Virus record (IMG/VR): IMGVR_UViG_3300027741_000085
Span: 1-54,249 of that record
Origin: a virus
Lineage: Duplodnaviria; Caudoviricetes
Reading direction: 5' to 3' (one strand)
Length of the DNA: 54,249 nt
This document shows, in pieces, positions 1 to 36,099 of this stretch (its first letter is position 1; each line of letters starts with the position of its first letter). Both the position numbers and the translations under genes were made by a program. Under the pieces are notes generated by a model. That model did no database searches and had not been told where the DNA came from. It was given only the letters and a program-made list of their open reading frames with translations.

Positions 1-229
1 CGTTATGCCTGTCTTTGGCAGCCACAGCCAAGCCGAGCATGTAGTGGTCTTCGAGGCCCTCACGGACTCCGAGTTTGGGGGCCTTTCGTAGTCCGTGACC
101 CACTTCCCACCCAATCCGCCAAGCCGATTCGATGAATGGATTGCCCTTTGGAAATTCGGGGTGCGCATCGGCATAACTAGCGGTTGCAGGCAACCCCTCT
201 ATGCTATCTGTCGGTGGATTCGTCTTCAT
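1..229 (-). CDS. Cassette-borne hypothetical protein, truncated at the window edge (MKTNPPTDSIEGLPATASYADAH...KDRHN)
   Basis: Manual translation. The ATG lies in the loop of attC A1 and the frame stays open to position 1, ending at GGCATAAC, the start of the next attC. Confidence 0.65.
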   Translation of the reverse strand, partial: MKTNPPTDSIEGLPATASYADAHPEFPKGNPFIESAWRIGWEVGHGLRKAPKLGVREGLEDHYMLGLAVAAKDRHN

Positions 230-262
230 GGCTTCGTGGTTGCCTGACCCTTATCGTTCTAA
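171..262 (-). mobile_element. attC-like site A1
   Basis: Minus strand AAC-gataa-gggtcaggcaacc...ggttgcctgCaacc-gcta-GTTATGC: an imperfect inverted repeat with an extra C. Its arms are nearly the same as those of site C4. Confidence 0.85.
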
Positions 263-571
263 TCATTCATCGGGCATATTGGGTAGCCACATCCAATGCG
301 TGATATGGCAGTCGATTGCTTCGTCGCTATGCACGTCGATCCAGTCTTTTCCGTCCCATGACGCGACGTAGTGCGTGCCTTGGTCGGTGGCGAGCACTGG
401 CTCAGGATCAGGCGGGAGCCACGAATCGGAGTTTACCCATGTCGGCACATTGCGCTTTTCCGCCATCGCTATGATTTGATCATGGACGCGGTCAGGCATC
501 TGACCAGAACCATGCGGTGCAGCGCAACGGGCAGGGTCTTCGGTGGTTTGAATATCGTTCGCTTCGTTCAT
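263..571 (-). CDS. Cassette gene, DUF551-like protein
   Basis: W-x-P...VL...W...ITHWMWLPNMP motif typical of phage DUF551 proteins. Confidence 0.75.
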   Translation of the reverse strand: MNEANDIQTTEDPARCAAPHGSGQMPDRVHDQIIAMAEKRNVPTWVNSDSWLPPDPEPVLATDQGTHYVASWDGKDWIDVHSDEAIDCHITHWMWLPNMPDE

Positions 572-634
572 ATTTTTTGGTGGTTTAATTGTTGGTTGCG
601 GTCAGCCTGCCCGTTGCTGACCTGATCGTTCTGT
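504..634 (-). mobile_element. attC-like site A2
   Basis: AAC-gatcag-gtcagcaacgggcagg...cctgcccgttgcgctgCac-cgcatg-GTT on the minus strand. Confidence 0.85.
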
Positions 635-879
635 GAATAGATCGGCTCGCTCCACGTCCGCACAGGGAAGTGGATTCGCTCGCCGCCGAGTCCGTTCTTC
701 CGCAGGAGTGAGCAGACACCATCCGCTTGCTCCTTCGTGTCGTGTCGATCTCGGGTGGTGTTTTCGTGCCCCTCGTAGGAGAAGCTAAGCAGGTCGTCAG
801 GCCATTGAGCGCACGAGTTCCATGCGATCACAGAACACGGCACTGGTGGCAACGGAAGGGGATTCTCTGGAGTATCCAT
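568..879 (-). CDS. Cassette gene, hypothetical protein (probable start MDTPENP at 879)
   Basis: The ATG lies in the loop of attC A3. The stop overlaps the next ATG (ATGA) inside attC A2. Confidence 0.7.
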   Translation of the reverse strand: MDTPENPLPLPPVPCSVIAWNSCAQWPDDLLSFSYEGHENTTRDRHDTKEQADGVCSLLRKNGLGGERIHFPVRTWSEPIYSQNDQVSNGQADRNQQLNHQKI

Positions 880-959
880 ATCAGTCTTGATTTGAGTGTT
901 GAGCGGCTTCGTCGGAGCGCATCGCCGCCCCTTCCGTCGCCACAGTTTTGACGTTCTCT
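830..959 (-). mobile_element. attC-like site A3
   Basis: AAC-gtcaaa-actgtggcgacggaaggg...cccttccgttgccacCagt-gccgt-GTT on the minus strand. Confidence 0.85.
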
Positions 960-1246
960 CAACTGAACATAGCGGCATGTTTGATCGCTACGCATGATGA
1001 GCAAACATAGTATTCAGCCTCTTGTGTGCCGCCCTCATAGGCTCCAACTATTTGCACCCATATCAGTTCACCTTCTTTTGCGTCGGAACACACATCGCAG
1101 TCACGCGGATCTTTTGCCCAGAAGTCGCAGCACTCTAGCCCCATCTGGTCAGCCATCTGGTCAACCGTCAGAGAACACGGCACTGCATCCGACACGCAAA
1201 GCGGCGGTGGCGGTTCCGCGGGCGGAGTATGCGCGATCTCACTCAT
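959..1246 (-). CDS. Cassette gene, small Cys-rich (CxxC...CxxC) protein
   Basis: ORF track; CDVC and CSSC motifs; start lies inside attC A4. Confidence 0.7.
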   Translation of the reverse strand: MSEIAHTPPAEPPPPLCVSDAVPCSLTVDQMADQMGLECCDFWAKDPRDCDVCSDAKEGELIWVQIVGAYEGGTQEAEYYVCSSCVAIKHAAMFS

Positions 1247-1279
1247 GATTCGGCGTGCGTATGAGTTTGATCGTTACAT
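1170..1279 (-). mobile_element. attC-like site A4 (outer boundary of array A)
   Basis: AAC-gatcaa-actcatacgcacgc...gcgtgTcggatgCagt-gccgt-GTT, with two extrahelical bases (T and C). Confidence 0.85.
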
Positions 1280-1755
1280 AGTTGACTAATTTTCACAGCC
1301 CAGCCTTCCGTTTGCTTCTGAGCAAATCGCCATGTCCACATGGGGAATGCGCTGACGGCTTCTTTGTATGCGCGCAGGGTGTGTCCGTTGTGGATACGGG
1401 GGCCTTTGACTTCACAGAGGCACACAATTTCTGCGCCTCGCAGGACGACTAAATCAGGGGTGTAACGGGTGCCGCTGGGGAGATGTAAGGTGAAGGGTTC
1501 AAAAAGCACGAGGCAACTTTGATGTTCAGCGATAAGAAACCGCTGATATTCTTGCTCTCCTTGGTTCATCTTCCGGGGGCGGGGCATCCGAATCTGGGGC
1601 GCGCTAGTGGCGGGTTGAACCAAGCCGTTCGTGCGAACGAACTCAGCGGCTTTCACGCCTTTGGGAAGCTGGATCGTGCTGCCAGACGGCAAGTTCATGA
1701 ACGCCCGGTATTCCTTCGCGGTCATCTGCATCTGAGCTGGAGAAAGGGTGCTCAT
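1243..1755 (-). CDS. PD-(D/E)XK endonuclease (phage resolvase / DUF1064-like)
   Basis: YTPDL...EVKG motif; the C-terminal tail is encoded by attC A4. Confidence 0.75.
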   Translation of the reverse strand: MSTLSPAQMQMTAKEYRAFMNLPSGSTIQLPKGVKAAEFVRTNGLVQPATSAPQIRMPRPRKMNQGEQEYQRFLIAEHQSCLVLFEPFTLHLPSGTRYTPDLVVLRGAEIVCLCEVKGPRIHNGHTLRAYKEAVSAFPMWTWRFAQKQTEGWAVKISQLCNDQTHTHAES

Positions 1756-1811
1756 ACGTAAGAGAATGCTTTTTGCTTGTGAAAGCGGGCGTTCTCGGGT
1801 TTACTAAGGGT

Positions 1812-2036
1812 ATGAAACTGGAGGCTCCCACCAATCCTGATGTCATTGAAGCGCTGAATCTGCCCGCCAATGCTCCCTTCATTCAACTGGTGATCCCGCC
1901 GCCCACCTGGTGGCAAGAAAACCGCGAATGGATCATTACCGTGTTTCTCCTGCTGGTCATCGCTGTTTGGATACTGAGCGCCCGCAGTGAGCAGACTGAG
2001 GAGGATTACAACTCCCGGTATGAACTTGTTCATTAG
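1812..2036 (+). CDS. Small membrane protein
   Basis: Hydrophobic stretch WIITVFLLLVIAVWIL. Confidence 0.5.
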   Translation: MKLEAPTNPDVIEALNLPANAPFIQLVIPPPTWWQENREWIITVFLLLVIAVWILSARSEQTEEDYNSRYELVH

Positions 2037-6534: not shown

Positions 6535-7425
6535 ATGTCTGACTGGATCAAATTCAACCGCTCGCTGCTCGCGAATCCCAAGGTGGACGCGATGCTGGCG
6601 ATTCTTTCCCAGCGTCGCAATGTTACGTTACGTGTTACGTCACGCGATACGGTGATTGTAACATTGCTCTCGTTATTCTTCGTCATCAATGATCATGCAG
6701 ACGGGGAACTCGTGCGTAACGCAGATGAGGATTGGGTGGACCGTCACAGCACGGAGGGCTTCGCAAGCGCACTCCAAAAAGTGGGGTGGTTGGAAGTGAC
6801 GGAAGAGGGATTACGCTTCCCGAAATTCCTTAACCATAACTCTCCAGCCCGCTCCCGTAAGCCTGCGAAGAGCAATGCAGAGCGGCAAGCTGAGTATCGC
6901 GCTCGTAAAAAAGGCGTTACTTCACCCCCCGCAGAATCCCCAGCCAGTGACGTAACAAGTAACGATGATGTTATGTTACGCTGTAACGTTACAGTAACAG
7001 AGAGAAGAGAAGAGAAGAGAAGAGATATTAATAAAGAAAGTAATCACGCGGGCGTGAGGGAAGCAGGAAAGCCGGACCCAGAAACGGAACTCGTGGAGAA
7101 GATCGTCACGGCCTACACGAAGCGAAAGGACGCGCCGATGGAGTGTCGCCAAGCAGTGCTAGCTGCTCTGCGCGGCGGTGAAGATGGCGTTACGATTCTG
7201 AGCGCGGTGCAACGTTACGTTACGGAAATCGAAGCGTCTCCGCACGGTTGGGATAACGCTTACATCCCGAACGCTAAGGCGTTCTTCACGGGCGCGCAGT
7301 GGGGCAGCATCGGCGGCCTCATCGCTCGGCTGAAAACGAACGGAGAGAAAGTCATTCGGCATCAGCAGGAGCAGAAGCGCTTACCTGTGACCACTGGACT
7401 CACCTTGGACTGGAACAATTCCTAA
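6535..7425 (+). CDS. Phage replication initiator protein
   Basis: DWIK N-terminus, wHTH (FASALQKVGWLE), NAERQAEYRARKK and REEKRR motifs; lies upstream of a DnaC-like ATPase. Confidence 0.75.
   Translation: MSDWIKFNRSLLANPKVDAMLAILSQRRNVTLRVTSRDTVIVTLLSLFFVINDHADGELVRNADEDWVDRHSTEGFASALQKVGWLEVTEEGLRFPKFLNHNSPARSRKPAKSNAERQAEYRARKKGVTSPPAESPASDVTSNDDVMLRCNVTVTERREEKRRDINKESNHAGVREAGKPDPETELVEKIVTAYTKRKDAPMECRQAVLAALRGGEDGVTILSAVQRYVTEIEASPHGWDNAYIPNAKAFFTGAQWGSIGGLIARLKTNGEKVIRHQQEQKRLPVTTGLTLDWNNS
6945..7030. repeat. Probable replication origin within the initiator gene
   Basis: Clustered GTAAC/GTTAC repeats, palindrome CTGTAACGTTACAG and an AGAGA tract; a second GTTACG cluster at 6620-6645. 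Confidence 0.5.
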
Positions 7426-7429: not shown

Positions 7430-8161
7430 ATGACTACCACGACTGCACCTTTACAAAATCCCCATTCTCCGGGCAGCAAAGCTTTCTGGGACTGGCATCA
7501 TGCCCGAATCGCTGCGCTGGATGCTGAACAGCGGGAAGTGATGAAGGTCGCGGGCGTGGAAGCAGCGCGGCGGCGCTGGAAAGCCATCCCGATAGAACTC
7601 ACTATGCCAATCAATCCGAAGCATTCCGGTTTCTGCATCTCTGACGAGTATTTGCAATACTGCCGGAAGTGGGACCCCGCGAGCGGGCGCGGCATCGGCT
7701 TGGTGGGAAGCCCAGGGATCGGCAAGACTCGAGTGCTCATTGAGATTCTTGGTCGCCTGCCGGTCTATGTCCCGTGGCTTTACCTCCCTGTGTGGCAGTT
7801 CTGCGAGTGCGTGGCCTTGGCTAATAGCCGCAACACGCAAGAAGCGCAGGAAGCACGTCATCTGCTGCAAAAAGCGCGCCGAGTGAAGGTGCTACTCTGG
7901 GATGACATCGGCGATCTCCGCGCCACGGATGCCTGCGTGCAAGAAGCGAAAGCCATGGTGGACTATCGCGTGCATCATCGGCTCCCCTTGCTCTGGACGG
8001 GAAACCCTAGCCAATCTGCACTAATCAGCAAATACGGCAAAGACGAAGCCATGCTGACCCAGATGCAAGCCGTGGTGCGCCGCCTGACCGGGTTCTCATG
8101 GATGCCTGGTGCGCGCACTGAAGCCCAGCCTAGCCTTTCGTTGGACACTCCAACAAACTGA
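7430..8161 (+). CDS. DnaC/IstB-like AAA+ helicase loader
   Basis: Walker A GSPGIGKT and Walker B LLWDDIG. Confidence 0.8.
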   Translation: MTTTTAPLQNPHSPGSKAFWDWHHARIAALDAEQREVMKVAGVEAARRRWKAIPIELTMPINPKHSGFCISDEYLQYCRKWDPASGRGIGLVGSPGIGKTRVLIEILGRLPVYVPWLYLPVWQFCECVALANSRNTQEAQEARHLLQKARRVKVLLWDDIGDLRATDACVQEAKAMVDYRVHHRLPLLWTGNPSQSALISKYGKDEAMLTQMQAVVRRLTGFSWMPGARTEAQPSLSLDTPTN

Positions 8162-9195: not shown

Positions 9196-9489
9196 CAGCG
9201 CCGCTCCGAATCGGAAAGAAACTCCATAAGCAAAAAGAAAGCATCAACGTCACATCGGAAGTCGCAATCGGGTAAAGTCTCTGACAAAATTGCCCGCCAC
9301 TTTTTTCAACGCTTCGACAATGGAAGCGACACATGCAAGCGGCTCGCTGCTCGTGGCGGGCGATGGCCGGACAAAGAAACCGACCTCGGTGGAGTCTGTG
9401 AATCCGCCTTCGCATCAATAATTGAGGACGCACTCAATGCGCTGAACGACCAAACTCTGCCGACCGAAGGGGCGGCGAAAAAGCCATGA
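9196..9489 (+). pseudogene. Decayed cassette gene (no start codon; its attC has only the left arm)
   Basis: Frame ...KIARHFFQRFDNGSDTCKRLAARGGRWPDKETDLGGVCESAFASIIEDALNALNDQTLPTEGAAKKP* ends inside attC B1. AAC-gacaag-gtgagc at 9171 has no matching right arm. Confidence 0.5.
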
Positions 9490-9542
9490 AATCACGAAAG
9501 ACTACATCCGCCCCGAAGGTTGGCAGCAGTGCCTTGTTCGGC
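9441..9542 (+). mobile_element. attC-like site B1
   Basis: AAC-gaccaa-actctgccgacc...ggttggcagCagt-gcctt-GTTCGGC. Confidence 0.85.
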
Positions 9543-9806
9543 ACTTGGTCGCCGCCAGACACGGCCCCGAGAAACGGCACGCTCATCCTCGGAGACTTTG
9601 GATGGCCATGGCCGCTGCTTGCGGTCTGGGATGAGTATGATGAGCAATGGGTGACGGCCACCCTGCAAGCCTGCCCGATGGAGAATGGGAAGAAGAACTC
9701 ATACCTTGAAACTGACACGGAAAAGGGCAGCGCATTGAAGCGATGGACTCCGCTACCGCTGCTGCCGAACGTCTCGGATCAGGCGACGGCGAGGAGGAAG
9801 CAATGA
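9486..9806 (+). CDS. Cassette gene, DUF551-like protein
   Basis: WSPPDTAPRNGTLIL...W...WTPLP motif; starts in B1 and stops in B2. Confidence 0.75.
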   Translation: MKSRKTTSAPKVGSSALFGTWSPPDTAPRNGTLILGDFGWPWPLLAVWDEYDEQWVTATLQACPMENGKKNSYLETDTEKGSALKRWTPLPLLPNVSDQATARRKQ

Positions 9807-9855
9807 AGACACGACAGACTAAATCGAGCCGTTGCCTGCATCCGATTTGTTCGGT
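9764..9855 (+). mobile_element. attC-like site B2
   Basis: AAC-gtct-cggatcaggcgacggc...gccgttgcctgCatccg-attt-GTTCGGT. Confidence 0.85.
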
Positions 9856-10087
9856 CTTGTTGGCGTGTCCATTTTGCGGCGGCAAAGCAAAACGTGGCCG
9901 CAAGGCGATAGGCTTCGACACCATCGCTGATATCGTGCGTTGCGGTGCGGTGCGTTGCCCTGTGCATCCAGAAACAACACCGTGCGACCATCGCGGAATA
10001 CTGCGAGGCAAACGAGGCGCGGCGGAAGTGTGGAACCATAGACCGAACGTCGGCGGTGAGGCGACGGCGAGCGAGGCGCACCGCTGA
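9803..10087 (+). CDS. Cassette gene, Lar (restriction alleviation)-like zinc ribbon protein
   Basis: LLACPFCGG...C..C...AAEVWNHR pattern of the Lar family; the ATG overlaps the previous stop. Confidence 0.7.
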   Translation: MKTRQTKSSRCLHPICSVLLACPFCGGKAKRGRKAIGFDTIADIVRCGAVRCPVHPETTPCDHRGILRGKRGAAEVWNHRPNVGGEATASEAHR

Positions 10088-10134
10088 CACGACAAAATTT
10101 TTACGAGCCGTTGCCTCCACTGCTCTTGTTAGAC
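10042..10134 (+). mobile_element. attC-like site B3
   Basis: AAC-gtcggc-ggtgaggcgacggc...gccgttgcctcCact-gctctt-GTTAGAC. Confidence 0.85.
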
Positions 10135-10312
10135 CCAACGAACCACAAATATGCACTCCTGCCCTGAATGCGGACAAGCCTGTTATTGCAATGGCGACAT
10201 CGACGACATTGACGCAAACGCGATGGATGGACCACCGTTCTGCGAACACCCATGTATTGAGCCAGAGAAAGATGATCGCTGGCCTGATGACCCACCAGAA
10301 GTGAAGTCTAAC
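10046..10312 (+). repeat. 264-bp cassette, copy 1 (copy 2 at 35493-35759)
   Basis: Identical apart from two substitutions seen; identity starts and ends at the AAC boxes. Confidence 0.95.
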
Positions 10313-10321
10313 AGTGATTAG
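10151..10321 (+). CDS. Cassette gene, small acidic Cys-rich protein (MHSCPECGQACYC...)
   Basis: Manual translation; duplicate of 35598-35792. Confidence 0.7.
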   Translation: MHSCPECGQACYCNGDIDDIDANAMDGPPFCEHPCIEPEKDDRWPDDPPEVKSNSD

Positions 10322-10343
10322 CCTACCACCCGTTAGCATAATG
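10310..10343 (-). mobile_element. attI-like terminal site of array B
   Basis: 33 of 34 bp identical to 36066-36099; no hairpin; minus strand reads ...GGCTAATCACT-GTT. Confidence 0.6.
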
Positions 10344-12396: not shown

Positions 12397-12413
12397 GGTA
12401 ACAAATGAGCGGT

Positions 12414-13054: not shown

Positions 13055-13067
13055 GAGAATTAGTCGT

Positions 13068-13667: not shown

Positions 13668-13711
13668 AGAAACGTATTGTCAACTAATTATCAATGTGCA
13701 AGACTTCGCCC

Positions 13712-24275: not shown

Positions 24276-24343
24276 CGACGGTTTGATAATTAGTTGACGA
24301 TGTGAAGCGGTGCGGCGAAGGTCGCACCGCTTCCTTTGTTCTT

Positions 24344-24826: not shown

Positions 24827-24842
24827 CCAAAACTAAGACTTC

Positions 24843-25775: not shown

Positions 25776-25781
25776 ACGATT

Positions 25782-26384
25782 ATGGCGTTACACAATTACT
25801 ACGTTTATTTTAATGATGGAACTTTTCAAGCGGTGCCTCAGTCGAAGCCGCCTGTATTAGTAGGTGTTTCCGTTGCGATGGGCACGTATCGCGATTTGAA
25901 CGGGGCGGGCACGCAAACAAACATCCCCACGAGCAGCAGTTCTTTGGGCAATGAATCAGGTTCAGGCACCAAAGCCGTCAATAGCAGCACGCCTTCATCT
26001 GTTGCAATCGGAACTGGAGATGGCGCCACCAATACGTTGCAACATCAGACAAATAACACTTCTGATGTAAGCAATACTTCTAAAGTGTCATCCTCTGCAA
26101 GTGAAGGCTCAGGAGGCATTTTAAATAATCAAGGCGTTGCAGTAGCCGGCACGGGTCATGATGTGCTGACGACGTTGAGCGCAGACGGTTCCAATGTTGT
26201 TAAAGCGACGGCTCCAAATGTGTATTCGTTTCCTGATGACATCACACACATTCCGCCACGCCCTAAAACTGAAACGTGGTCCCATTGGGAGTTTCGAGAT
26301 GATAATGATGATTTACTAGCCTCACCCAGATATGAGGATGTCCTCAACTTTTCAACGTTGCCTCCTCAAGTCTTAATCGCGTAA
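25782..26384 (+). CDS. Structural protein (Ser/Thr/Gly-rich)
   Basis: ORF track. Confidence 0.6.
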   Translation: MALHNYYVYFNDGTFQAVPQSKPPVLVGVSVAMGTYRDLNGAGTQTNIPTSSSSLGNESGSGTKAVNSSTPSSVAIGTGDGATNTLQHQTNNTSDVSNTSKVSSSASEGSGGILNNQGVAVAGTGHDVLTTLSADGSNVVKATAPNVYSFPDDITHIPPRPKTETWSHWEFRDDNDDLLASPRYEDVLNFSTLPPQVLIA

Positions 26385-26387
26385 CTT

Positions 26388-27158
26388 ATGGCTGAGAAAC
26401 CACCCGGATTTCGCATGGAGACGACATCACCGCATAGCCGCGATGATCTTCTACATGTCCCTTTCCAAATGGTGGCGATGTCGCCTGATACCCGCCCAAA
26501 TTTGGGTGAGAAGCTAAAAGATATTCGATTTGATGCCAATGCGCGCCCAAGCATTTCTAAATTCTCGGATTGGGTGTTAGTGGAAATTGACAGCGGATCG
26601 CTGGTGTTCGGTCAAAACAATCTTCCTACGGCGGCTTTAGCGCTGGAACCAAGTGATACGTTACATGATCGAGATCATTGGAGCTGGCCGACGGTGATAC
26701 GCGGTCAACCGATTTGGCAACATATTATTGGCACAGGTGGAAACTACTTGGAGACAAGAGTCATTATTGATGAAGTGCCAGAGCAAACGTTACCTACGTT
26801 TTTCCTAACGGAAATCTGGTGGACCACTGAACCTTGGCCGCTGGAATTACTTAAAACAAAGCAACCTCTCACTTCTCCCGTGGTGTGGGGCTATCCCGGA
26901 GCGCGAGGAAGTAGGCAAGCACTCCATGAAACTATCGACACGCCCCCACTAACGATCACTTCTATACGCGGACAAACGGCACCGGTTCATATTCCTTCCC
27001 GTCGTTTTCCTGGCACAGATTTCAAGCATTGGACCCGTTACGTGGTGTCTGATAAACAGCCCAAGATTCGAGGCCGTTATCGCCGTGAACGGCGCACGGC
27101 TATTCCTCCTTACGATTCACGTAAATATCCTAACCCACCTTTTGATTTGAGTTCATGA
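26388..27158 (+). CDS. Hypothetical tail-region protein
   Basis: ORF track. Confidence 0.6.
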   Translation: MAEKPPGFRMETTSPHSRDDLLHVPFQMVAMSPDTRPNLGEKLKDIRFDANARPSISKFSDWVLVEIDSGSLVFGQNNLPTAALALEPSDTLHDRDHWSWPTVIRGQPIWQHIIGTGGNYLETRVIIDEVPEQTLPTFFLTEIWWTTEPWPLELLKTKQPLTSPVVWGYPGARGSRQALHETIDTPPLTITSIRGQTAPVHIPSRRFPGTDFKHWTRYVVSDKQPKIRGRYRRERRTAIPPYDSRKYPNPPFDLSS

Positions 27159-27925
27159 GTGACGGCTATTCGAGTGTAGAAGCCTGGCGACAAGCGGAGC
27201 AAGCGCCTTTTTTCATGGCCCCGAATCAGCGCCAAAAAGGCTTTGGTTCGCGGGTGTTTTTGCAAGCACAGACGCCGCAGGATGAATACCCCTTGGATGG
27301 GTGGGGTAACCCAGGCATTCCGGGTAAAGATGGCGTGTCAAGCAGTGGTGTGGATGGACTACCCGGAAAAGACGGAGTAGACGGAGCAGACGGGACGCCT
27401 TCCACGGTAGCAGGTCCAATGGGTCCACCGGGTTTAGCAGGCGCAAACGGAGCCGATGGCAACCCTTCTACGGTAGCTGGCCCCCCTGGAGATGCTGGTT
27501 CTCCAGGAACTCCTGGGAATCCATCAACAGTGCCGGGACCGCCCGGACCGCCCGGACCACCGGGAGCTCCTGGAAGTGATGGCGGACCCCCAGGCCCCCC
27601 AGGTTCACCTGGAGGCCCAGGAAGTGACGGAAGTCCTGGCGGCGCTGGTAGCCCAGGAAGTCCTGGCGGCGCTGGTAGCCCGGGAAGTCCCGGAGCGCCC
27701 GGAATAGACGGCACGGATGGAAGAGACGGCACGGATGGAAGAGACGGTGTAGGTGTGCCTTCCGGTGGCCATACCGGCCAAGTTTTACGCAAACTTGATG
27801 AATCTCCTTACACATCCGTTTGGGATGAATTGGGTAAAACTATCAACGTGGCAGTGCTCGCCAACGATGGGGTTACAACCATTATTCTACATTTTACCAA
27901 CGGCCTTTTAACCTCAACCTCATAA
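27155..27925 (+). CDS. Collagen-like fibre protein
   Basis: Long interrupted Gly-X-Y repeats, including GPP runs. Confidence 0.9.
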   Translation: MSDGYSSVEAWRQAEQAPFFMAPNQRQKGFGSRVFLQAQTPQDEYPLDGWGNPGIPGKDGVSSSGVDGLPGKDGVDGADGTPSTVAGPMGPPGLAGANGADGNPSTVAGPPGDAGSPGTPGNPSTVPGPPGPPGPPGAPGSDGGPPGPPGSPGGPGSDGSPGGAGSPGSPGGAGSPGSPGAPGIDGTDGRDGTDGRDGVGVPSGGHTGQVLRKLDESPYTSVWDELGKTINVAVLANDGVTTIILHFTNGLLTSTS

Positions 27926-27942
27926 TAATTTAAACTACTCCC

Positions 27943-28512
27943 ATGACATCTTGGAAACATCTTCTTCCTGCCGCCCTGACACCTGCTGAGTGTCAGCAAC
28001 TCATTGCCTACGCTACGACACAGATTCCTGATACTGAAGGTGCGATTGGCTACGGGGGAAAAAACGTGATCGTGAATACGTTTCGTCGGTCGCGACTACG
28101 TTGGTTAAAGCGCGAAGATCCTGAATTGCAATGGTTGTTCACGCGTATGGATCAGTGGGTGATGAGCGCAAACGCTCGAGTCTTTGGCTTTGATGTCACG
28201 GGCAACTTTGAAGTGCAGTTTACCGAGTATCACGGCTCCAACGCGGGCAAGTATGACTGGCATGAAGATAATTCATGGTTGGGCACCACGCCGTTTGACC
28301 GTAAGCTGAGCATGAGCATTCAGCTTTCCCATGCACAGACCTACAGCGGTGGACGCATGGAACTGGCACAGGGGAACCTTGCAGAAGGTGAGTTCTGCAA
28401 CCAAGGCGACGCACTGATTTTTCCTTCCTTTCTGCGCCATCGCGTGCTGCCCGTAACCAGCGGCGTGCGTTATTCCCTCGTCTCATGGTGGCAAGGGCCA
28501 CGACTGCGTTGA
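27943..28512 (+). CDS. 2OG-Fe(II) oxygenase (prolyl-4-hydroxylase-like)
   Basis: WHED...RKLS...FPSF..HRV.PVTSG.RYSLV.W. Confidence 0.9.
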   Translation: MTSWKHLLPAALTPAECQQLIAYATTQIPDTEGAIGYGGKNVIVNTFRRSRLRWLKREDPELQWLFTRMDQWVMSANARVFGFDVTGNFEVQFTEYHGSNAGKYDWHEDNSWLGTTPFDRKLSMSIQLSHAQTYSGGRMELAQGNLAEGEFCNQGDALIFPSFLRHRVLPVTSGVRYSLVSWWQGPRLR

Positions 28513-28535
28513 TTGGTTAGATCCCTCTTCCTTTT

Positions 28536-28670
28536 ATGAAAACCCTCGATCATCTCGACTGGCAACAGATCATCAGCATAGAGCCTGACGGGGAAGACGA
28601 ATGCGTGTGTATCGAAGTCACTCACCCTAGCAAGTGCTACATCACGGATGACGGGATCGTGACACACAAC
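28536..28670 (+). other. Orphan intein C-terminal fragment (IntC, 45 aa)
   Basis: Blocks F and G ending in HN, followed by Thr+1, directly after the start Met. Confidence 0.8.
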
Positions 28671-31600
28671 ACGACGGTGAACACCCCATCTTTGCAAATG
28701 GGGGCTGCACAGGAGAATCCAAATGCTGCATTGCAGGATAAAGCTATTCGTGGTATAGATGAGGCACTCTATGGAGACTCCCGCAAAGAAAATCAGCAAC
28801 GGAGGCGTGGTCACACCGGAAACGATGCCCGATCTTTTAGCCGCGCCGCGCTCCAAGACGAACGCCGAAATAAGGGCGCAGGCGGAGCGCGCGAGGAGCT
28901 GGCGCGCGACACAGGCGCAACGCGAAGAGAAGAAGCCGCTCGTCTCGTAGATTACGCACGGGATAACGGCTTCCTCATTGAGAAGATGCCGGAGCAATGG
29001 AAGCCCTACGCCGAGGGTGATGTGGGCGGACAAGAGCACCATGTGTGGATTCCAGAACAAGGAGCGCGGGTTATCAAGCTTACAACGCTGAGCAAACGCG
29101 GTGCCGACATTTTTGGTATGAACCCTGTGCCCTATCAAGGGAAGTGGGACTTGGACACGAAGGGAGCGACCGCTTACCGCTATCTTCAGCGTCTCGAAGA
29201 CGGAAACCAGACTTTCGGGGATGATCACATTGTGCATGGTGTCTGGAATGATCGTGGAGATGTCCACCTTCTTACGAGTCAGCGGGCCTATGATGGGGAA
29301 CTGCCTAGCAATCTTCCCGAGGGACTCGCAGCAGCCGAAGAAGCGGCGGAGAGCGACCGACGCACGCAAGATGTTGCCGAGGCGTTTGCTAAACAAGGCT
29401 TTGTCGCTCTAGATAACCGCACCTATTACCGTCCTTCCGACAATACAGCCGTCTTTGATGCCCACTTAGCAAACGTCATGTGGGTTACTGGAAAAAGCGG
29501 AGTGCGTCGCCTAGTTCCCTTTGATGTCACGACCATGCATCCCGTGGGCAAGCTCAAGGAGAATTTAGCTCAAGCAGCGCAGGCTGTTGCCGAACCCCAA
29601 CGTCTCTACATGGCCGCCGCACAAGCTGCGGATGAACTCGCCCGTATCAATCGCGAAGCTGGCGCCGCCCGCGTGATCAAGGATGAACTTGAGGAAAAGG
29701 GCCAGCCGGCGAAGCAAATGACCGGAGTGAAGGAGTCGGCAGCCGCCGCTCTGCGTGGCATCTTTGCTGGGAAGTTTGATAAGATGGAAGCCGCCGCCCG
29801 TGGTCTTGGTGACTTGGTGCGCGGGAATGACATTGAACAGCACTTCTCGGAAGCCGCGCTCAATGACTACATGGATAAGGTGCGCCAGTCGGTAAAGGAA
29901 AGCTTCGGCTCGCCTTCCTACTGGCATAACCGACAGAACCGGAAACGTCTCCAGCGCTTCAGTGATACCTTGCTGCCTGTCGCGGCGCGCTTGAATGCCA
30001 CGGGGATTGATCCAACGGGCTTCACGTTCTCCGACTTCGACATGCGCGTGGGCACGATCTTTGAAAGTGACCTCAAGAAAATGAACGCTAAGCCGGGTGA
30101 CATGATCCCGTGGAAGGGCGCGAGTGGCATGATGGAAATGCTCAAGGTAGGGCCGCTCATCATGGACCAAGGCGTGAACGCCCGTAGTTCCAAGAATGGG
30201 CGTTATACCCTGCTCCGCCACATGGCTGCGGATACTCAACAGATCATCTATGACCACTTCAAACAAGAATTCCCTGAAGGCGCGGCGTGGTTAGATCAAT
30301 GGATTGATCCCCTGCTACGGGATGCCACGCAGACGGGGCCGGGTAATGTGCAAGTGCCTGTGTTCAATCGCCACGCGCTGCTCAAGAGTTTTAATGACTG
30401 GTCGCCAGAACTGAAAGCGCTCTTTGGTAGTGAACCCCTGCCAGGCATCACCGGAATGGAAGGCTACACCCCGGACGTGATGGCGCAGAAGGGGCTGATT
30501 AACAGCATCGGTGCTGCCTTGAACGGCAATAGTTACCTGAATCGATTCATGTCCAGCGCTCGCAAATTCAAAGCGGGTGACTTACGCGAAGAGGGCAACG
30601 TCAAGAACCTTTTCGACGGCTTTACGCAGCGGGCCATGGAATCGCATCGTGAGAAGATTCGCCTCAAGACACGGCGCGACATCATTCAGAAAGCCGCCCG
30701 GCCAGCGAACAAGGTTCAACCGGAAGACTTGCGCTCTGGCTTGTTCATTCCCCTCGATGACACGTTCAAGAAGCTTTATGAGGCGCATGTGATCGCCTCT
30801 GGCCTTGATCGTGCGAAGTTCCCCGTGCTCACGCAATCTCTCAATCCTGACCAGAAGAGCGCCTTGCAAAAGCTCTTTGCTGATATGTATCAGCTCTATG
30901 GGAACGGCATGGTGATTCATCGCGATATTCACCGCCAGCTTGTGCTGGGTGCCGCCATGACCCAGACAGAGAATAGCCTCACTAAAGCGCTGTCATGGAT
31001 CATTGGACGACGTAACCGTAACGTTTTAGTAGAGTTGGGCACGTATGCCAATAATTGGAGAGGTAACTTTGTGCTGCAACCCGTGGAACTTATGAACCGG
31101 GTGAACCTTGCGATTGTGAACGGATTGACGGCTCCGTTCAGTAGCAAGGCCAAGGATGAAGGTGAACTAGCCGCTCGCCAAGTAGCTGAGCTCTTCAAGG
31201 GCTTCTTTGCTGATCGCCGTATCTTCGACCTCTGGACACTGAATAACGGTTTAGGGGCGGGGATTGGGAAGATTCGTCCATTTGTGCCGCAAGAAGTCTT
31301 TGGCGACGGTAGCAATCTTAGATATGACGAGGATTTTCGAGACAAAAGCGTGCTCGGTCATTTGAAAAACCTCGACGTAGGCGCGGCGTTCCTGCAAGGC
31401 ATCCGCTACGGGAACATCGATACACATCCAAAGATGAGTAACACGTATCGGCTTCTCCGGGCAGAAGCGGCGCATGTGGCCGCCCGTCAGAAGATTCCCA
31501 ACGCCAAGCGTGAAGCCTTCATCAATGATTGGATGCTGAACGCTCATAAGGATAATCCCCTTGCCTTCCTGCGAGCGTTCAAGGCTAGTCAATCCCGGTT

Positions 31601-33047
31601 CATGGACTATGAGAACGTCCCTTCGTGGATGGACCCTACGCAGTCGGCTTTGCCCCTGAATGCTAGTGACAACGCTCGTCATTGGGAAAAACTGCTAAAA
31701 AGCGCCACGTTCCCGTTCATCCGCTGGAACTACAACATGATGCGTCAAGTCTATCATCAGAGCTTTGGCGCGCTCATCAATGCCACGCAAGGCGCGCAAG
31801 AGGGCGACTGGAGCAAGGTGCGTTCTGAAGTGGCAAACCTCATGACGACGGCGGCTCTAACGGGTGTGGCTTCCTATCTTATTGGTGGTGGCGGTGGGGA
31901 TGATGACAAGGAGCTTTCTCTAGGCACAAATCAAGATGCTGAAGGTAAGTATCTGCCTAAACAACTGCGCAGTGGTAGCCGATTGAATTGGGCCTCTATT
32001 ATGCGTAGGCTTACGGGTAAGCCAGCTACAGATGACTATAGCGTTGAAGGTTTAGATCATAGTGCGAATGATTTATGGTATCGCTACAAACAAGACCCAT
32101 GGTTGCCTCAAGCCATCATCCTCGGTTTGCTTGCTCGAGGCCGTGCCGATGAAGCTTACAAAGCGGCTGGCGATCTGGGCACCGATTACTTTTTAAGTTT
32201 TGGTGTGATTGGGAATACTATTCCAGGTCTGCGCGCTGTTCTAAATCCTTATACGGCGGATCAGAACTATAGTTATGCAGCAACAGGCACCGCTATTGAT
32301 TTGGCCATCTCGCCGCTTGTGCCAACTCGGTTGATTCAACACATCAGTAAGATTATCGACCCTGTGACCCGACAGGAAGCACCGCGTGTGTTGCCTCGCA
32401 GTGAGGGCAAGACCAAGAAAGGCTGGGAGGATTATCAGCCTGGACCACTCGAAGCATTGAAGATGCGTATTCCAGGCATGAGCAAAGACTTGCCTGCTGC
32501 TGGCACTCTTACACAGGGGGAAGCGGGGAACTTTGATCCTGAAGCATGGTTACGCAATAAGACCAGCACGCTACGCACCCAGCTTAATAAAGGACTGATC
32601 ACGAAAGAGCAGTTCCGCCAAGCCGCCGGCGATGCCGTCAACCAAGCCAAGGAACTTGCCGCCAACAAGCTGAGCCCTCCCCAAGTAGAGAAGCTCTATG
32701 CCGACATGGGCATTAATCAGACTCCCGATGATAAAAAGCGGGTGAGCGGCGTTCCCATGATTCCTGAACTGCGCACGCTTCAGGATCTCGGCGTAGGCAA
32801 GGAGAGCGTGAGAACCTACGTCAGCAAAGATAGCAAAGGCCGTGATGTAACCAAAATTACCGCGCCAAGCCCTGATACAATAACTGTCGCCGATCCGCGC
32901 TTAGAAATCCTTAAAGCACTTACAGGAATTAACGTATCTTTGATCCCCACAGGGCGCGTGAAAGCTGCCGTTCAAAAAGGCGATTTCTACAAGACCCCGT
33001 GGAAACCTAAGCAGGCGTTGACGGGTAAGGATTGGTTCAAGAAGTAA
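28536..33047 (+). CDS. Giant polyvalent virion protein: N-terminal intein C-fragment, PolyVal-type kinase and large C-terminal region
   Basis: CVCIEV...YITDDGIVTHN/T at residues 1-46; GGQEH.VW...RVIK...DAHLANV...PFD kinase-like motifs; C-terminal region paralogous to the 4450-aa protein. Confidence 0.8.
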   Translation: MKTLDHLDWQQIISIEPDGEDECVCIEVTHPSKCYITDDGIVTHNTTVNTPSLQMGAAQENPNAALQDKAIRGIDEALYGDSRKENQQRRRGHTGNDARSFSRAALQDERRNKGAGGAREELARDTGATRREEAARLVDYARDNGFLIEKMPEQWKPYAEGDVGGQEHHVWIPEQGARVIKLTTLSKRGADIFGMNPVPYQGKWDLDTKGATAYRYLQRLEDGNQTFGDDHIVHGVWNDRGDVHLLTSQRAYDGELPSNLPEGLAAAEEAAESDRRTQDVAEAFAKQGFVALDNRTYYRPSDNTAVFDAHLANVMWVTGKSGVRRLVPFDVTTMHPVGKLKENLAQAAQAVAEPQRLYMAAAQAADELARINREAGAARVIKDELEEKGQPAKQMTGVKESAAAALRGIFAGKFDKMEAAARGLGDLVRGNDIEQHFSEAALNDYMDKVRQSVKESFGSPSYWHNRQNRKRLQRFSDTLLPVAARLNATGIDPTGFTFSDFDMRVGTIFESDLKKMNAKPGDMIPWKGASGMMEMLKVGPLIMDQGVNARSSKNGRYTLLRHMAADTQQIIYDHFKQEFPEGAAWLDQWIDPLLRDATQTGPGNVQVPVFNRHALLKSFNDWSPELKALFGSEPLPGITGMEGYTPDVMAQKGLINSIGAALNGNSYLNRFMSSARKFKAGDLREEGNVKNLFDGFTQRAMESHREKIRLKTRRDIIQKAARPANKVQPEDLRSGLFIPLDDTFKKLYEAHVIASGLDRAKFPVLTQSLNPDQKSALQKLFADMYQLYGNGMVIHRDIHRQLVLGAAMTQTENSLTKALSWIIGRRNRNVLVELGTYANNWRGNFVLQPVELMNRVNLAIVNGLTAPFSSKAKDEGELAARQVAELFKGFFADRRIFDLWTLNNGLGAGIGKIRPFVPQEVFGDGSNLRYDEDFRDKSVLGHLKNLDVGAAFLQGIRYGNIDTHPKMSNTYRLLRAEAAHVAARQKIPNAKREAFINDWMLNAHKDNPLAFLRAFKASQSRFMDYENVPSWMDPTQSALPLNASDNARHWEKLLKSATFPFIRWNYNMMRQVYHQSFGALINATQGAQEGDWSKVRSEVANLMTTAALTGVASYLIGGGGGDDDKELSLGTNQDAEGKYLPKQLRSGSRLNWASIMRRLTGKPATDDYSVEGLDHSANDLWYRYKQDPWLPQAIILGLLARGRADEAYKAAGDLGTDYFLSFGVIGNTIPGLRAVLNPYTADQNYSYAATGTAIDLAISPLVPTRLIQHISKIIDPVTRQEAPRVLPRSEGKTKKGWEDYQPGPLEALKMRIPGMSKDLPAAGTLTQGEAGNFDPEAWLRNKTSTLRTQLNKGLITKEQFRQAAGDAVNQAKELAANKLSPPQVEKLYADMGINQTPDDKKRVSGVPMIPELRTLQDLGVGKESVRTYVSKDSKGRDVTKITAPSPDTITVADPRLEILKALTGINVSLIPTGRVKAAVQKGDFYKTPWKPKQALTGKDWFKK

Positions 33048-34241: not shown

Positions 34242-34559
34242 ATGCCTGTTGATTACTCCAAATATCCCAAAGACTGGAAAACAGTGATTCGTCCGCGAAT
34301 CCTTGAACGGGCGCAGCACCGATGCGAGGGGACGCCATCATTCCCAAACTGCCAAGCAGTGAATAAAGCCTGTCATCCTGAGACATGCTCAATGGTCGTG
34401 CTGACTATCGCCCATTTAGATCATGATGTGACTAATAACGCCGACTCTAACCTCAAAGCTTTATGTCAACGCTGCCACCTGACTTACGACGCCGCGCATC
34501 ACGCCCACAATGCACGGAAAACGCGAGAAACGCGAAGAGGTCAGATGGTGCTGCTATGA
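34242..34559 (+). CDS. HNH-like protein
   Basis: YP.DW..IR..IL.RA..RCE...VLTIAHLDHD..N....NL.ALCQRCHL.YD. Confidence 0.8.
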   Translation: MPVDYSKYPKDWKTVIRPRILERAQHRCEGTPSFPNCQAVNKACHPETCSMVVLTIAHLDHDVTNNADSNLKALCQRCHLTYDAAHHAHNARKTRETRRGQMVLL

Positions 34560-34945
34560 TTAGGAACGTTCGCATCAGCGATGGCGGAAGTCCCTGCTCT
34601 GTTGACCAGCAGCAGGCTTGTTCGGCTTGTGTGCTGATTCACGATCTGCATTTGCGACTGAGCGCCTTGGAGGCGGCCCATCACCGTCTTGTGTGGAAGG
34701 TGGCAGAAGCGACCAAATGGGAACCGCAAGGCTGCGATGACCAGCCAGTGGGAATAGCTGAATCGTTCTGCCAAAACTGTCGGACGTGCCACTATCCGCT
34801 GTCCGGCTGCCCTGGTGATGGCGGCCCTACGGGACCAGAACCAAATGGAGCAGATGGGCCTGTCGGAATGCCTGGCCCGCGTGGACCAAATGCAGACGGA
34901 GCGCCTAGAGAAACGGAAGAAGAGCACAGGCAACGCCTGAGCTGA
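34556..34945 (+). CDS. Cassette-like gene with Cys motifs and a short Gly-X-Y segment
   Basis: ATGA coupling; spans degenerate attC C1; stops inside attC C2. Confidence 0.55.
   Translation: MIRNVRISDGGSPCSVDQQQACSACVLIHDLHLRLSALEAAHHRLVWKVAEATKWEPQGCDDQPVGIAESFCQNCRTCHYPLSGCPGDGGPTGPEPNGADGPVGMPGPRGPNADGAPRETEEEHRQRLS
34561..34626 (+). mobile_element. Degenerate or chimeric attC-like site C1
   Basis: GAAC-gttcgc-atcagc left arm; short hairpin cctgctctg/cagCagcagg followed by GTTCGGC; the outer arms do not match. Confidence 0.45.
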
Positions 34946-34992: not shown

Positions 34993-35033
34993 TGCGTTCC
35001 GACTGACCTACAAAAGATTTCTAAAAATATCGC

Positions 35034-35063
35034 TTGCGCATCTACGGCAATGCCGTATTATAT
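35034..35063 (+). promoter_or_regulatory. Cassette-internal promoter with a palindromic operator
   Basis: TTGCGC...TATTAT, with TACGGCAATGCCGTA (35043-35057) in the spacer. Confidence 0.6.
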
Positions 35064-35097
35064 AAGGCAGTCAGAAACCAACAAACTAAGCGAAAAT

Positions 35098-35304
35098 ATG
35101 AACACAGTCACACTCCACGTATTCACCAACGAAGCAGACATCGAAGCCGACTCTGATAAAGACACCGCTTTTACGCGGTGGAACGAAAACTTCAGCGATC
35201 CTTACACGCGCTATTTCACGATAGCCATTGAGGTTCCTGCTGTGGTGTCGCAAGCAAAAATTGTGCTACCAGTTGAGCCTACTCCAAGCGTCACCTTCGC
35301 ATGA
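35098..35304 (+). CDS. Cassette gene, small acidic protein
   Basis: ATG after the promoter; coupled to the HTH gene. Confidence 0.65.
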   Translation: MNTVTLHVFTNEADIEADSDKDTAFTRWNENFSDPYTRYFTIAIEVPAVVSQAKIVLPVEPTPSVTFA

Positions 35305-35534
35305 TTTTTGCTCAACAACTCCGAGCCGCCGCTGGCGACCTGACCGCACGGCAGGTCGCCTTTGCGGTGTCTCCGCTCCTGAGCGTCCGCACGGTAGAGG
35401 ACTGGCTCGCGGCCAGACGGACGCCACCGGACTGGACGCACGCATGGATTCTGAAAAACGTCGGAAGTCCAAAGAATCCCCGCAAGCGGGGGAACGTCGG
35501 CGGTGAGGCGACGGCGAGCGAGGCGCACCGCTGA
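35301..35534 (+). CDS. Cassette gene, XRE-like HTH protein
   Basis: LT.RQ.A....LLSVRTVEDW...RRTPP. Confidence 0.75.
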   Translation: MIFAQQLRAAAGDLTARQVAFAVSPLLSVRTVEDWLAARRTPPDWTHAWILKNVGSPKNPRKRGNVGGEATASEAHR

Positions 35535-35581
35535 CACGACAAAATTTTTACGAGCCGTTGCCTCCACTGCTCTTGTTAGAC
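35489..35581 (+). mobile_element. attC-like site C3 (same as B3)
   Basis: Identical to 10046-10134 from the AAC onward. Confidence 0.85.
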
Positions 35582-35597
35582 CCAACGAACCACAAAT

Positions 35598-35792
35598 ATG
35601 CACTCCTGCCCTGAATGCGGACAAGCCTGTTATTGCAATGGCGACATCGACGACATTGACGCAAACGCGATGGATGGACCACCGTTCTGCGAACACCCAT
35701 GTATTGAGCCAGAGGAAGATGATCGCTGTCCTGATGACCCACCAGAAGTGAAGTCTAACGGTCAGGGTCAGGCAACCTCCGAAGCGAAATGA
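35598..35792 (+). CDS. Cassette gene, small acidic Cys-rich protein (copy 2)
   Basis: Duplicate of 10151-10321 with a different C-terminal tail. Confidence 0.7.
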   Translation: MHSCPECGQACYCNGDIDDIDANAMDGPPFCEHPCIEPEEDDRCPDDPPEVKSNGQGQATSEAK

Positions 35793-35855
35793 AGACGAAG
35801 CTACCAGACAAGGCGCACCAAAGCGACGGGGGTTGCCTGCAACCTGTGGTTATGC
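35753..35855 (+). mobile_element. attC-like site C4
   Basis: GTCTAAC-ggtca-gggtcaggcaacc...ggttgcctgCaacc-tgtg-GTTATGC. Confidence 0.85.
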
Positions 35856-36067
35856 GACGGCTCTTCCTAGAGAAGGTGGCCGCAAAGGAAGCTGCTGCTG
35901 CTGCTGCCCGCACCGCCGCCATCCGCCGCAAGCAACTCGGCCCCATGCAGACAGAGGAGGGGATGCGCCATGACATCCAAGGCATCTTTGCTGATGGCGT
36001 CCACGCCCGAGGCGTCGGCTCTGCGGCAACCAAAATTCGCATCAAGGAACATGGGCAAGACGCATAA
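35789..36067 (+). CDS. Cassette gene, hypothetical protein
   Basis: Start lies in the C4 loop; the TAA overlaps the terminal AAC. Confidence 0.65.
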   Translation: MKTKLPDKAHQSDGGCLQPVVMRRLFLEKVAAKEAAAAAARTAAIRRKQLGPMQTEEGMRHDIQGIFADGVHARGVGSAATKIRIKEHGQDA

Positions 36068-36099
36068 CACTGATTAGCCTACCACCCGTTAGCATAATG
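36066..36099 (-). mobile_element. attI-like terminal site of array C, just upstream of int
   Basis: AACACTGATTAGCCTACCACCCGTTAGCATAATG; second copy at 10310. Confidence 0.6.

Follow-up and report, generated by a model that had tools for sequence, protein, structure and literature searches.

Probable integron cassette arrays in the operons of a phage, built from attC sites of a Verrucomicrobiaceae family

Integrons are gene-capture devices of bacteria, and phages have so far been met only as their occasional carriers. Here we describe three clusters of attC-type hairpins, each separating small genes, in the virus record IMGVR_UViG_3300027741_000085 (Duplodnaviria; Caudoviricetes), which was analysed at its full length of 54,249 bases and is referred to below as the window. 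The closest described systems are the sedentary chromosomal integrons, such as the superintegron of Vibrio cholerae with its homogeneous attC sites, the VCR repeats; in general an attC site is framed by the inverted repeat R'' RYYYAAC ... R' GTTRRRY and has R-box and L-box stems and extrahelical bases. Inverted integrons are known from Treponema and other Spirochaetes, where the integrase gene intI is flipped and the cassettes keep their usual relation to attC. Hairpins between small genes also occur in the early operons of T7-like phages, in which intercistronic RNase III hairpins lie on the sense strand.

Integron components in phages were reported by Qi et al. (2023, Front Microbiol, PMC9892861), whose main text describes them in 21 phages, with 17 clusters of attC sites lacking integron integrases (CALINs), at low frequency and with few phages carrying intI; it places the crossover at G|TTRRRY, and it finds that phage attC sites are recombined by IntI1, bottom strands being more active than top strands. 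The window resembles these phages in having attC clusters with no IntI nearby in the phage genome. It differs from them, as far as the main text of that paper goes and its supplementary tables aside, in being linked to a putative phage-specific IntI group, a putative common attI, a systematic inversion of cassette genes and an in-frame junction. The openly accessible literature, likewise with the supplements of Qi et al. set aside, gave no account of integrons in phages of Verrucomicrobia, of a phage IntI group, of inverted cassettes or of an in-frame junction.

Like the sedentary chromosomal integrons, the window has cassette arrays split by highly alike attC sites of about 100 nt, with AAC and GTT boxes whose complementarity runs cassette by cassette. 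In those integrons, including the ones of Verrucomicrobiaceae considered below, IntI and attI lie at one end, on the strand that has the bottom-strand site form; the Verrucomicrobiaceae host cassettes, spaced at 400-900 nt, have their genes on the top strand, with attI behind the direction of reading, whereas the phage cassettes are coded on the bottom strand, lie mostly 110-500 nt apart and are read towards attI. Unlike the host cassettes, those of the phages start in their own attC, cross the recombination point in a fixed frame and form arrays within operons on both strands. With the inverted integrons of Spirochaetes they share the co-orientation of intI and cassette genes; here, however, intI, attI and attC stand in their usual relation to one another, and it is the open reading frames (ORFs) inside the cassettes that are flipped. 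The RNase III hairpins of T7 differ in having no AAC and GTT boxes, no cassette-wise complementarity, no link with an integrase and no identical copies in host chromosomes. We know of no bacterial integron that has the architecture of the phage arrays, with inverted genes, start codons within the site and a fixed junction frame.

From a covariance model of the site and a comparison of viral and bacterial loci, we conclude, with a probability of roughly 0.85, that the hairpins are genuine attC sites of the chromosomal-integron family of Verrucomicrobiaceae and that the three clusters are phage-borne integron cassette arrays. Recombination at these sites would be carried out by an IntI, and the arrays are presumably still active.

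The attC sites of the window and of Verrucomicrobiaceae integrons

The initial annotation of the window, made from the sequence by eye, had listed ten hairpins by the starts of the 7-mers that end in AAC, and all ten positions are as it gave them. A two-arm pattern of the upper stem, run against IMG/VR, matched 48 stretches, four of which (L010, L019, L026 and L030) were set aside as chance matches with odd spacing and no boxes. The covariance model R1 was built from an alignment of 39 distinct viral copies and four window sites, in which the middle stem covaries. Folds were computed for single-stranded DNA (ssDNA) of the coding strand and are given as z against shuffles. The elements of the three arrays are the following.

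1170..1291, minus strand: start of array 1, with the motif copy AATTAGTCAAC at 1281-1291 directly before it, then a decayed first site with a GTT box alone (1170-1176 on the plus strand)
830..959, minus strand: attC A1b; R1 27.8 bits, outside the training set; z -4.15
504..634, minus strand: attC A1c; R1 19.3 bits, outside the training set; z -2.95
171..262, minus strand: attC A1d; R1 53.9 bits, outside the training set; z -1.37, hairpin in the centroid structure only
9441..9542, plus strand: attC A2a, first site of array 2, with AAC box 9441-9447 and GTT box 9536-9542; R1 50.3 bits; z -2.25; bulged base on the 3' arm
9764..9855, plus strand: attC A2b; R1 101.9 bits; z -4.29
10042..10134, plus strand: attC A2c, which opens the duplicated cassette 10045-10315; R1 80 bits; z -1.04 (same element as A3b)
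10306..10343, plus strand: end of array 2, with the terminal AAC box 10306-10312 and then the attI-like sequence 10313-10343
34576..34632, plus strand: decayed attC remnant, 3' half only, inside ORF 34463-34945; R1 13.1 bits, E 0.09; recognised by eye against the elements of L050 and L051
34928..34992, plus strand: attC A3a, a short-loop variant; z -2.12; R1 weak, E 0.77
35489..35581, plus strand: attC A3b, in the later copy (35492-35762) of that cassette; ORF 35598-35792; R1 77 bits
35753..35855, plus strand: attC A3c; R1 46.5 bits; z -2.52
36062..36099, plus strand: end of array 3, with the terminal AAC box 36062-36068 and then the attI-like sequence 36069-36099

Each cluster holds three hairpin sites with no IntI nearby, which is the arrangement of a CALIN (at least two close attC sites and no IntI); the complete-integron arrangement, an intI of at least 265 bits beside an array, does not occur in the window. 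Array 1 runs off the window, since the AAC box of its last cassette lies at 2-8 (GTTATGC on the plus strand). AAC and GTT boxes are present in all nine hairpin sites, within a wider consensus nnnGAAC / GTTCnnn that does not strictly follow RYYYAAC, and every element lies on the local coding strand. The fold on that strand consists of an outer stem of 6-8 bp formed from the AAC and GTT boxes, an internal loop of 2-5 nt, and then a middle stem and an upper stem, about 6 and about 10 bp long, the upper one having a conserved G-T; the terminal loop measures from 5 to about 70 nt. Against the mean of their shuffles, eight of the nine distinct sequences give the better ssDNA fold (z -1.04 to -4.29). 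The site at 1170 is not a hairpin, as its z of +0.21 indicates, so that nine of the ten proposed hairpins fold and the tenth retains only its GTT box. The 'extra C' that the annotation attributed to every hairpin corresponds to a bulged 3'-arm base, which is predicted for six of the nine elements.

When run on the window with filters off, R1 finds eight elements at E<0.01, four of which belong to its training set while one is a copy of a training sequence; the remaining three (164-269, 498-641 and 823-966, all on the minus strand) are independent detections. It matches weakly at 34921 and 34576 and gives no match at 1170. Homologues of ORF 959-1246, the gene of array 1's first cassette, start within canonical attC sites of other viral loci (66-68% identity; L005 and L033/L052, the latter two being one record).

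On 44 other viral loci (408,970 bases) R1 gave 140 matches, or 121 without opposite-strand shadows, and the largest array in this search has nine sites (L018). Among the last-detected sites listed, 34 of 43 have an exact 8-mer partner a few hundred nucleotides downstream, and a short-loop attC unseen by R1 often comes next. Short-loop variants of about 55-60 nt were seen to escape R1 downstream of the last match (for example in L004, L009, L012, L022, L023, L027 and L051); because these missed sites follow the exact 8-mer partner of the previous site, the viral arrays are longer than the R1 counts. In the metagenome run X2, summed contig depth was about 20 over the attC core (window 9640-9996) and 0-3.5 elsewhere, which fits an attC that is a multi-copy repeat in that freshwater community.

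The same element is found in bacterial integrons. The attC pattern matched at least 120 stretches of bacterial genomes, whose record titles are mostly of Verrucomicrobiota (Verrucomicrobiaceae, Prosthecobacter, Brevifollis, Luteolibacter and Akkermansiaceae), as an impression rather than a count; matches in other phyla have atypical spacing and the look of chance. The integron-integrase model TIGR02249 (cut-off 265 bits) scored 289-395 bits in four of five attC-bearing genomes and reached its cut-off in none of 14 control genomes. In five regions around host intI genes, R1 detected nine sites in L200, two in L201 and three in L202, all of them on the intI strand and on the side expected for cassettes; there were no R1 sites in L203, where IntI is split, or in L204, which is cut at a contig end 706 nt past intI. 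The host sites are near-uniform, and A2b is almost identical to them. Since the same element is arrayed beside host IntI genes that score above the TIGR02249 cut-off, the window element is the attC of this clade's integrons, and the window sites belong to the attC family of Verrucomicrobiaceae integrons. Verrucomicrobiaceae are the likely hosts of this phage. The R1 strand is the intI strand, opposite to the host cassette genes, and hence the bottom strand by the usual convention; the annotation had been right to read the coding strand of the phage as the attC bottom strand.

Cassette boundaries, orientation and reading frame

In the window, each GTT 7-mer can be set against the 7-mer that ends in the next AAC (plus-strand coordinates).

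2-8 and 171-177: exact reverse complements
256-262 and 504-510: agreement at 5 of 7 positions only
628-634 and 830-836: exact
953-959 and 1170-1176: exact
9536-42 and 9764-70: exact
9849-55 and 10042-48: exact
10128-34 and 10306-12: exact
34986-92 and 35489-95: exact
35575-81 and 35753-59: exact
35849-55 and 36062-68: exact

The nine exact pairs among ten are those of the initial annotation. In the wider family, boxes were located by position alone in 129 elements (11 AAC and 10 GTT boxes were left unplaced), and complementarity was counted as the exact run outward from AAC and GTT. An exact run of at least 7 nt, with a mode of 8-9 and a maximum of 12, is found in 41 of 58 distinct neighbouring pairs less than 2.5 kb apart; only 5 of 95 same-site pairs reach 7 nt, and for random pairs from different loci of the family the figure is 5.5%. 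Most of the 17 neighbouring pairs that fail lie more than 550 nt apart, and a divergent site between them was probably missed.

Cassette breakpoints fall at the AAC boxes, as the annotation predicted, in two comparisons. A 271-nt repeat (10045-10315 and 35492-35762) is 99% identical and places one cassette in two arrays: identity opens at GAAC, the upstream flanks differing right up to it, and closes at AAC. Since identity spans GAAC to AAC, the upstream hairpin is part of the cassette and the downstream hairpin is not, which is the layout to be expected if the bottom strand is cut at its 5' AAC. Past AAC, one copy continues into the attI-like sequence at 10313 and the other into attC A3c; because these continuations share nothing, homologous recombination cannot have made the junction. 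Its sequence suggests that cassette 35760-36067 was gained or lost precisely at AA|C beside an attI-like site, the A3c cassette being present in array 3 and absent at the same junction of array 2. The other comparison is with a contig of run X10, an independent lake metagenome, which holds 9438-9771 at about 98% identity (six differences) in another flanking context and diverges just past the AAC box into another attC-like start. Variant boxes in L034 and L028, where ACC pairs with the GGT of the previous site, appear to travel cassette-wise and support a crossover at AA|C. A reading of the hairpin itself as the mobile unit, a MITE or other transposon, was rejected, for such insertion would give direct and not inverted flanks, and flanks that do not span a gene.

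Cassette orientation was taken from the longest ORF per strand between neighbouring sites. By this measure 17 of 20 host cassettes are antisense to the R1 strand (one sense, two ambiguous), while 37 of 60 viral cassettes are sense to it (6 antisense, 17 ambiguous), as are four of the five window cassettes, the fifth being ambiguous. Two of the six antisense viral cassettes are in L040, a record classed as provirus, which may be host DNA. Since host cassette ORFs are antisense and phage ORFs sense to the same strand, the phage cassette genes are inverted relative to normal cassettes, as had been proposed. In the window they read towards the attI-like end, and not away from attI as in the canonical arrangement, where a promoter at the intI/attI end drives the genes.

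The genes are also tied to the sites by their frame. In six of the nine window attC sites the start codon of the downstream ORF lies in the loop, and the upstream ORF passes through the AAC box and ends within the next attC; in three cases (9803-9806, 571-568 and 35789-35792) its stop lies in an ATGA shared with the start of the following gene. Of 93 distinct viral attC sites examined for an entering open frame of at least 45 codons, 74 are entered in the frame that reads AAC as a codon and 3 and 4 in the other two frames, with 12 entered by none, so that the AAC-as-codon frame accounts for 74 of the 81 sites entered; 73 of these 74 ORFs stop 3-75 nt past AAC. The corresponding counts are 5, 0, 1 and 2 in the window and 6, 3, 8 and 11 in the host control on the same strand, this count missing ORFs that stop at a TGA overlapping the box. 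An ATG lies in the loop region of 82 of 105 viral sites and 14 of 32 host sites. The idea of a Shine-Dalgarno (SD)-like motif ahead of the loop ATG was dropped, as it occurs in 10 of 105 viral and 8 of 32 host sites, with no viral enrichment.

The cassettes of the window illustrate this design. In array 2, ORF 9486-9806 starts within the loop of A2a, and the ATGA in the loop of A2b is both its stop and the start of ORF 9803-10087; the Cys-rich ORF 10151-10321 follows in cassette 10045-10315. In array 3, A3a has a GTT box exactly complementary to the next AAC box (35489-35495), and its cassette holds ORFs 35098-35304 and 35301-35534, which overlap in ATGA; the second has a weak helix-turn-helix match (HTH_31, 16.9 bits, below cut-off), and the two may be a regulatory or toxin-antitoxin-like pair. 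This cassette (34993-35494) also has an AT-rich leader of about 100 nt ahead of its two ORFs, which by eye has the look of a promoter of its own. The loop of A3c holds the start of ORF 35789-36067, and the ATGA at 35789-35792 also ends the upstream ORF. In array 1, ORF 959-1246 stops in the AAC box of A1b, whose loop holds the start of ORF 568-879; in A1c the ATGA at 571-568 is the stop of the latter and the start of ORF 263-571; and ORF 2-229 starts in the loop of A1d, in a cassette that ends at the AAC box 2-8. Because the frame ends in the next attC, the Cys-rich ORF has different C-termini in its two copies; conversely, the unrelated proteins of 9803-10087 and 35301-35534 have the same 13-residue tail, which comes from identical copies of the next attC.

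The labels first given to these accessory genes stand in part. ORF 9803-10087 matches Lar_restr_allev of Pfam at the cut-off (28.6 bits), ORF 263-571 falls below that of DUF551 (18 bits against 22), and 'zinc-binding' goes back to Cys motifs alone. Compared by tblastn with all 201 loci, 12 window cassette proteins (one query being out of frame) had homologues for two genes only, all of them in viral loci and none in the small sample of host arrays. The Lar match and the homologues of 959-1246 indicate that the sense ORFs are, at least in part, real genes.

On this evidence a cassette would begin with the C of an AAC box, take in its own attC and the body of the gene, and close with the AA of the box that follows, and an IntI would excise or insert that unit by cutting AA|C on the folded bottom strand. 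The phage cassettes, coded on the bottom strand, would usually start in the loop of their own attC, their frame crossing AA|C with AAC as a codon and stopping in the next attC, often at the ATGA that starts the next gene. Because the start lies in the loop, the frame is fixed and the stop falls in the next attC, any cassette could be joined to any other without breaking the operon.

Array ends, recombinases and rival explanations

Arrays 2 and 3 both end in AAC followed by a 31-nt sequence (10313-10343 and 36069-36099), the two copies being identical except at the second base; their exact 29-mer occurs twice in the window, with 0.00 occurrences expected. Neither these ends nor the IntI genes of related phages had been part of the initial annotation. 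In four phage lineages the intI start is preceded at a distance of 30-60 nt, on its own strand, by AAC and then A(C/G)TGATTA, and the host locus L200 has a similar sequence upstream of intI. Both window array ends open with this motif, and because it is common to the sequences that precede phage intI genes we regard the two ends as attI-like, that is, as putative attI sites. By eye, a sigma-70 promoter was not found in the attI-like sequence, where a -10-like hexamer is present with no good -35 partner. In run X1, besides the continuation expected from array 3, a third, different sequence stands behind the attI-like motif (after window 10343) in two records, with a consensus agreement of 0.57; it may mark one more attI-like site, either in a relative or in the part of this phage that lies outside the record.

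Of the 44 attC-bearing viral records, 18 hold a PF00589 domain, as do six of the ten that are at least 90% complete. Six of 11 strong PF00589 ORFs, one per equal-score group, were scanned with TIGR02249; five score 341-355 bits and the sixth 259.9. Those above cut-off include ORFs of records with a completeness rating of 100%: G001 (39 kb, with direct terminal repeats), G004/G005 and G013. Viral contigs that have IntI as well as sites of this attC family include G003 and G013. Among themselves the phage IntIs share 60-79% identity, and with six host IntIs 40-47%, the protein of G026 being an outlier. The window has a recombinase in the position where these relatives carry intI.

36128..37285, plus strand: tyrosine recombinase gene, 29 nt past the second attI-like end; PF00589 66.7 bits, TIGR02249 31.1 bits (18.7 in another scan) against a cut-off of 265

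Could this enzyme itself be the cassette recombinase, acting on the attI-like site directly upstream? Its place and strand are exactly those that intI has in related viral contigs, and its PF00589 catalytic domain is complete. We consider this quite improbable, given that its TIGR02249 score is so far below the cut-off, that its other best NCBIfam matches are weak and XerC/XerD-like (the best XerC-like), that it is 20-25% identical to IntIs and in the catalytic core only, and that its nearest homologues, at about 40% identity, are numerous, widespread and ordinary integrases of Verrucomicrobia; moreover, the second attI-like site, at 10313, has no adjoining recombinase. Judged by sequence, the gene is not an integron integrase and is probably a lysogeny integrase. 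The IntI that would serve the window arrays could be of the phage type and encoded in the missing third of the genome, or be supplied by a co-infecting phage or by the host; since related phages encode their own IntI, the supply in trans that the annotation favoured is only one option.

Several observations weigh against our reading of the hairpins as attC sites in cassette arrays. The 54,249-base window, of a record that is about 69% complete, has no intI, its best TIGR02249 match being the ORF just discussed, and tblastn with 12 IntIs returned no intI remnant in it. Two window sites (1170 and 34576) are decayed, the pair 256-262 and 504-510 falls short of complementarity, and the bulged base of the window attC sites is C, against the G and T that are the extrahelical bases of studied attC sites. 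On its left side the X10 match already begins 9 nt upstream of the predicted AA|C, and in L043 (AGC/GCT) and L050 (CAC/GTG) the changed base agrees within the site and not cassette-wise. The metagenome runs were compared as contigs, in which circles and rare forms cannot show and in which window parts without cover carry no meaning. In two chimeric attC sites, L004:896-1002(-) and L018:1886-1991(-), the 5' lower stem does not pair with the 3' lower stem and each half matches other sites. These chimeras are best explained by homologous recombination within the conserved core, and homologous recombination in the repeats is therefore a second route of exchange.

Some of this would be expected if the arrays were fossils, their sites having been acquired once and being integrase substrates no longer, with homologous recombination between the 100-nt repeats, as mosaic linkers, doing the shuffling. 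The lack of intI, the two decayed sites and the non-pairing lower stems of the chimeras are in keeping with such a history, as are the four of ten viral records at least 90% complete that have no tyrosine recombinase at all. We nevertheless hold it to be unlikely: where the duplicated cassette adjoins the attI-like sequence, homology stops at AAC, a junction that homologous recombination cannot have made; the exact complementarity of 9 of 10 pairs in the window and 41 of 58 overall would erode without selection or ongoing site-specific exchange; the lower stems of single sites still pair and covary; and related viral contigs hold IntI genes with intact frames. It is also conceivable that the hairpins act at the RNA level only, in processing, stability or translational coupling between cistrons, and play no part in recombination, for they lie on the mRNA-sense strand, enclose start codons and stop/start overlaps in ATGA, and have a conserved G-T mismatch that would be a G-U pair on this strand. 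But the same sequence with the same G-T is kept in host integrons, where this strand is not mRNA, and an RNA function leaves the cassette-wise complementarity, the AAC breakpoints and the association with IntI unexplained; as a sole explanation it has very little probability, while an RNA role in addition to recombination is possible.

Keeping to attC sites of the Verrucomicrobiaceae family in phage-borne arrays, we lean, with some reserve, towards a wider hypothesis: that a phage-adapted integron lineage exists in phages of Verrucomicrobiaceae, with its own IntI group, a common attI and a distinct pool of short cassettes whose genes are inverted with respect to attC. Its cassettes would be standardised, frame-locked, translationally coupled modules, fit for insertion into any operon of either genome strand and for exchange between phages whose virion genes are unrelated, probably with anti-defence or host-takeover functions such as that of the Lar-like gene. 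If active, such arrays would give phages a homology-free, site-specific route for swapping small accessory genes, and would bear on the origin of phage mosaicism and the gain of 'morons' as well as on how phage and host draw on one recombination system in their arms race. The phage cassettes also provide a natural standard by which ORFs can be joined, and a large, so far untapped stock of short phage genes with recognisable borders.

Genome context of the arrays

The window is a linear record for which CheckV estimates a completeness of about 69%, and it is clearly a phage on its portal, terminase and replication genes and a tRNA.

6535-7425: replication initiator
7430-8161: DnaC-like loader
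10564-12423, minus strand: large terminase
13694-15784: SU10-type portal
24672-24743, plus strand: tRNA gene (Rfam, 58.3 bits), amid structural genes and within the mechanical ORF 24302-24826

The tRNA was the sole match of an Rfam scan of the window at gathering thresholds. The arrays sit within phage operons on both genome strands: array 1 at the far end of a leftward operon, array 2 at the close of a rightward operon with the replication genes, and array 3 after late or tail-like genes, directly upstream of the tyrosine recombinase gene. The earlier placing of the arrays in early operons fits the first two, by inference, and not the third.

Searches for relatives covered several parts of the window. 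A megablast of 13000-33000 against GenBank phages gave no match, and no GenBank phage is close to the window; the window integrase, used as query against viral and metagenome contigs, found no close phage relative, an alignment of it with its 58% homologue found no relative in the same contigs, and the portal returned none from the viral contigs. Among the 44 attC-bearing viral records, many of them fragments in which absence means little, a portal like that of the window is present in two, both at about 30% identity, and among the ten that are at least 90% complete in none. The large-terminase family phrog_2, a loose check of phage nature only, gave weak matches in two of five attC-bearing records. 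Judged by the portal, the attC family appears to be spread across phages whose virion genes are unrelated. Many viral contigs have these recombination sites as parts of phage operons, and 42 of the 44 contigs are without a portal like the window's.

The window holds 12 copies of an 11-nt motif, AATTAGTYRAC, where 0.05 would be expected.

Minus strand: 1281-1291, 13679 and 37288
Plus strand: 3460, 4146, 5867, 6472, 8601, 17139, 21489, 24288 and 43637

Its copies lie mostly just upstream of genes, one of them directly 5' of the first cassette of array 1, and it is probably a promoter or operator motif of the phage. Longer flanks are common to copies in the repeat families D11, D12, D14 and D16.

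Elsewhere in the window, a 4450-aa ORF (39382-52734, plus strand) has two domains that are typical of 'polyvalent' proteins, namely an inorganic-pyrophosphatase domain (InPase) and a RadC-like JAB domain. Roughly its final 3.4 kb and the 3' part of a 1503-aa ORF (28536-33047, plus strand) are 71-79% identical in DNA (families D2-D8 and D10), so that the two are large paralogues with a common C-terminal region. Tandem 27-nt repeats at 27560-27688 (plus strand; families D13 and I1) encode a Gly/Pro-rich, collagen-like stretch of ORF 27155-27925, and at its right end the record has an HNH endonuclease gene (53219-53920, minus strand; HNH_3, 33.3 bits).

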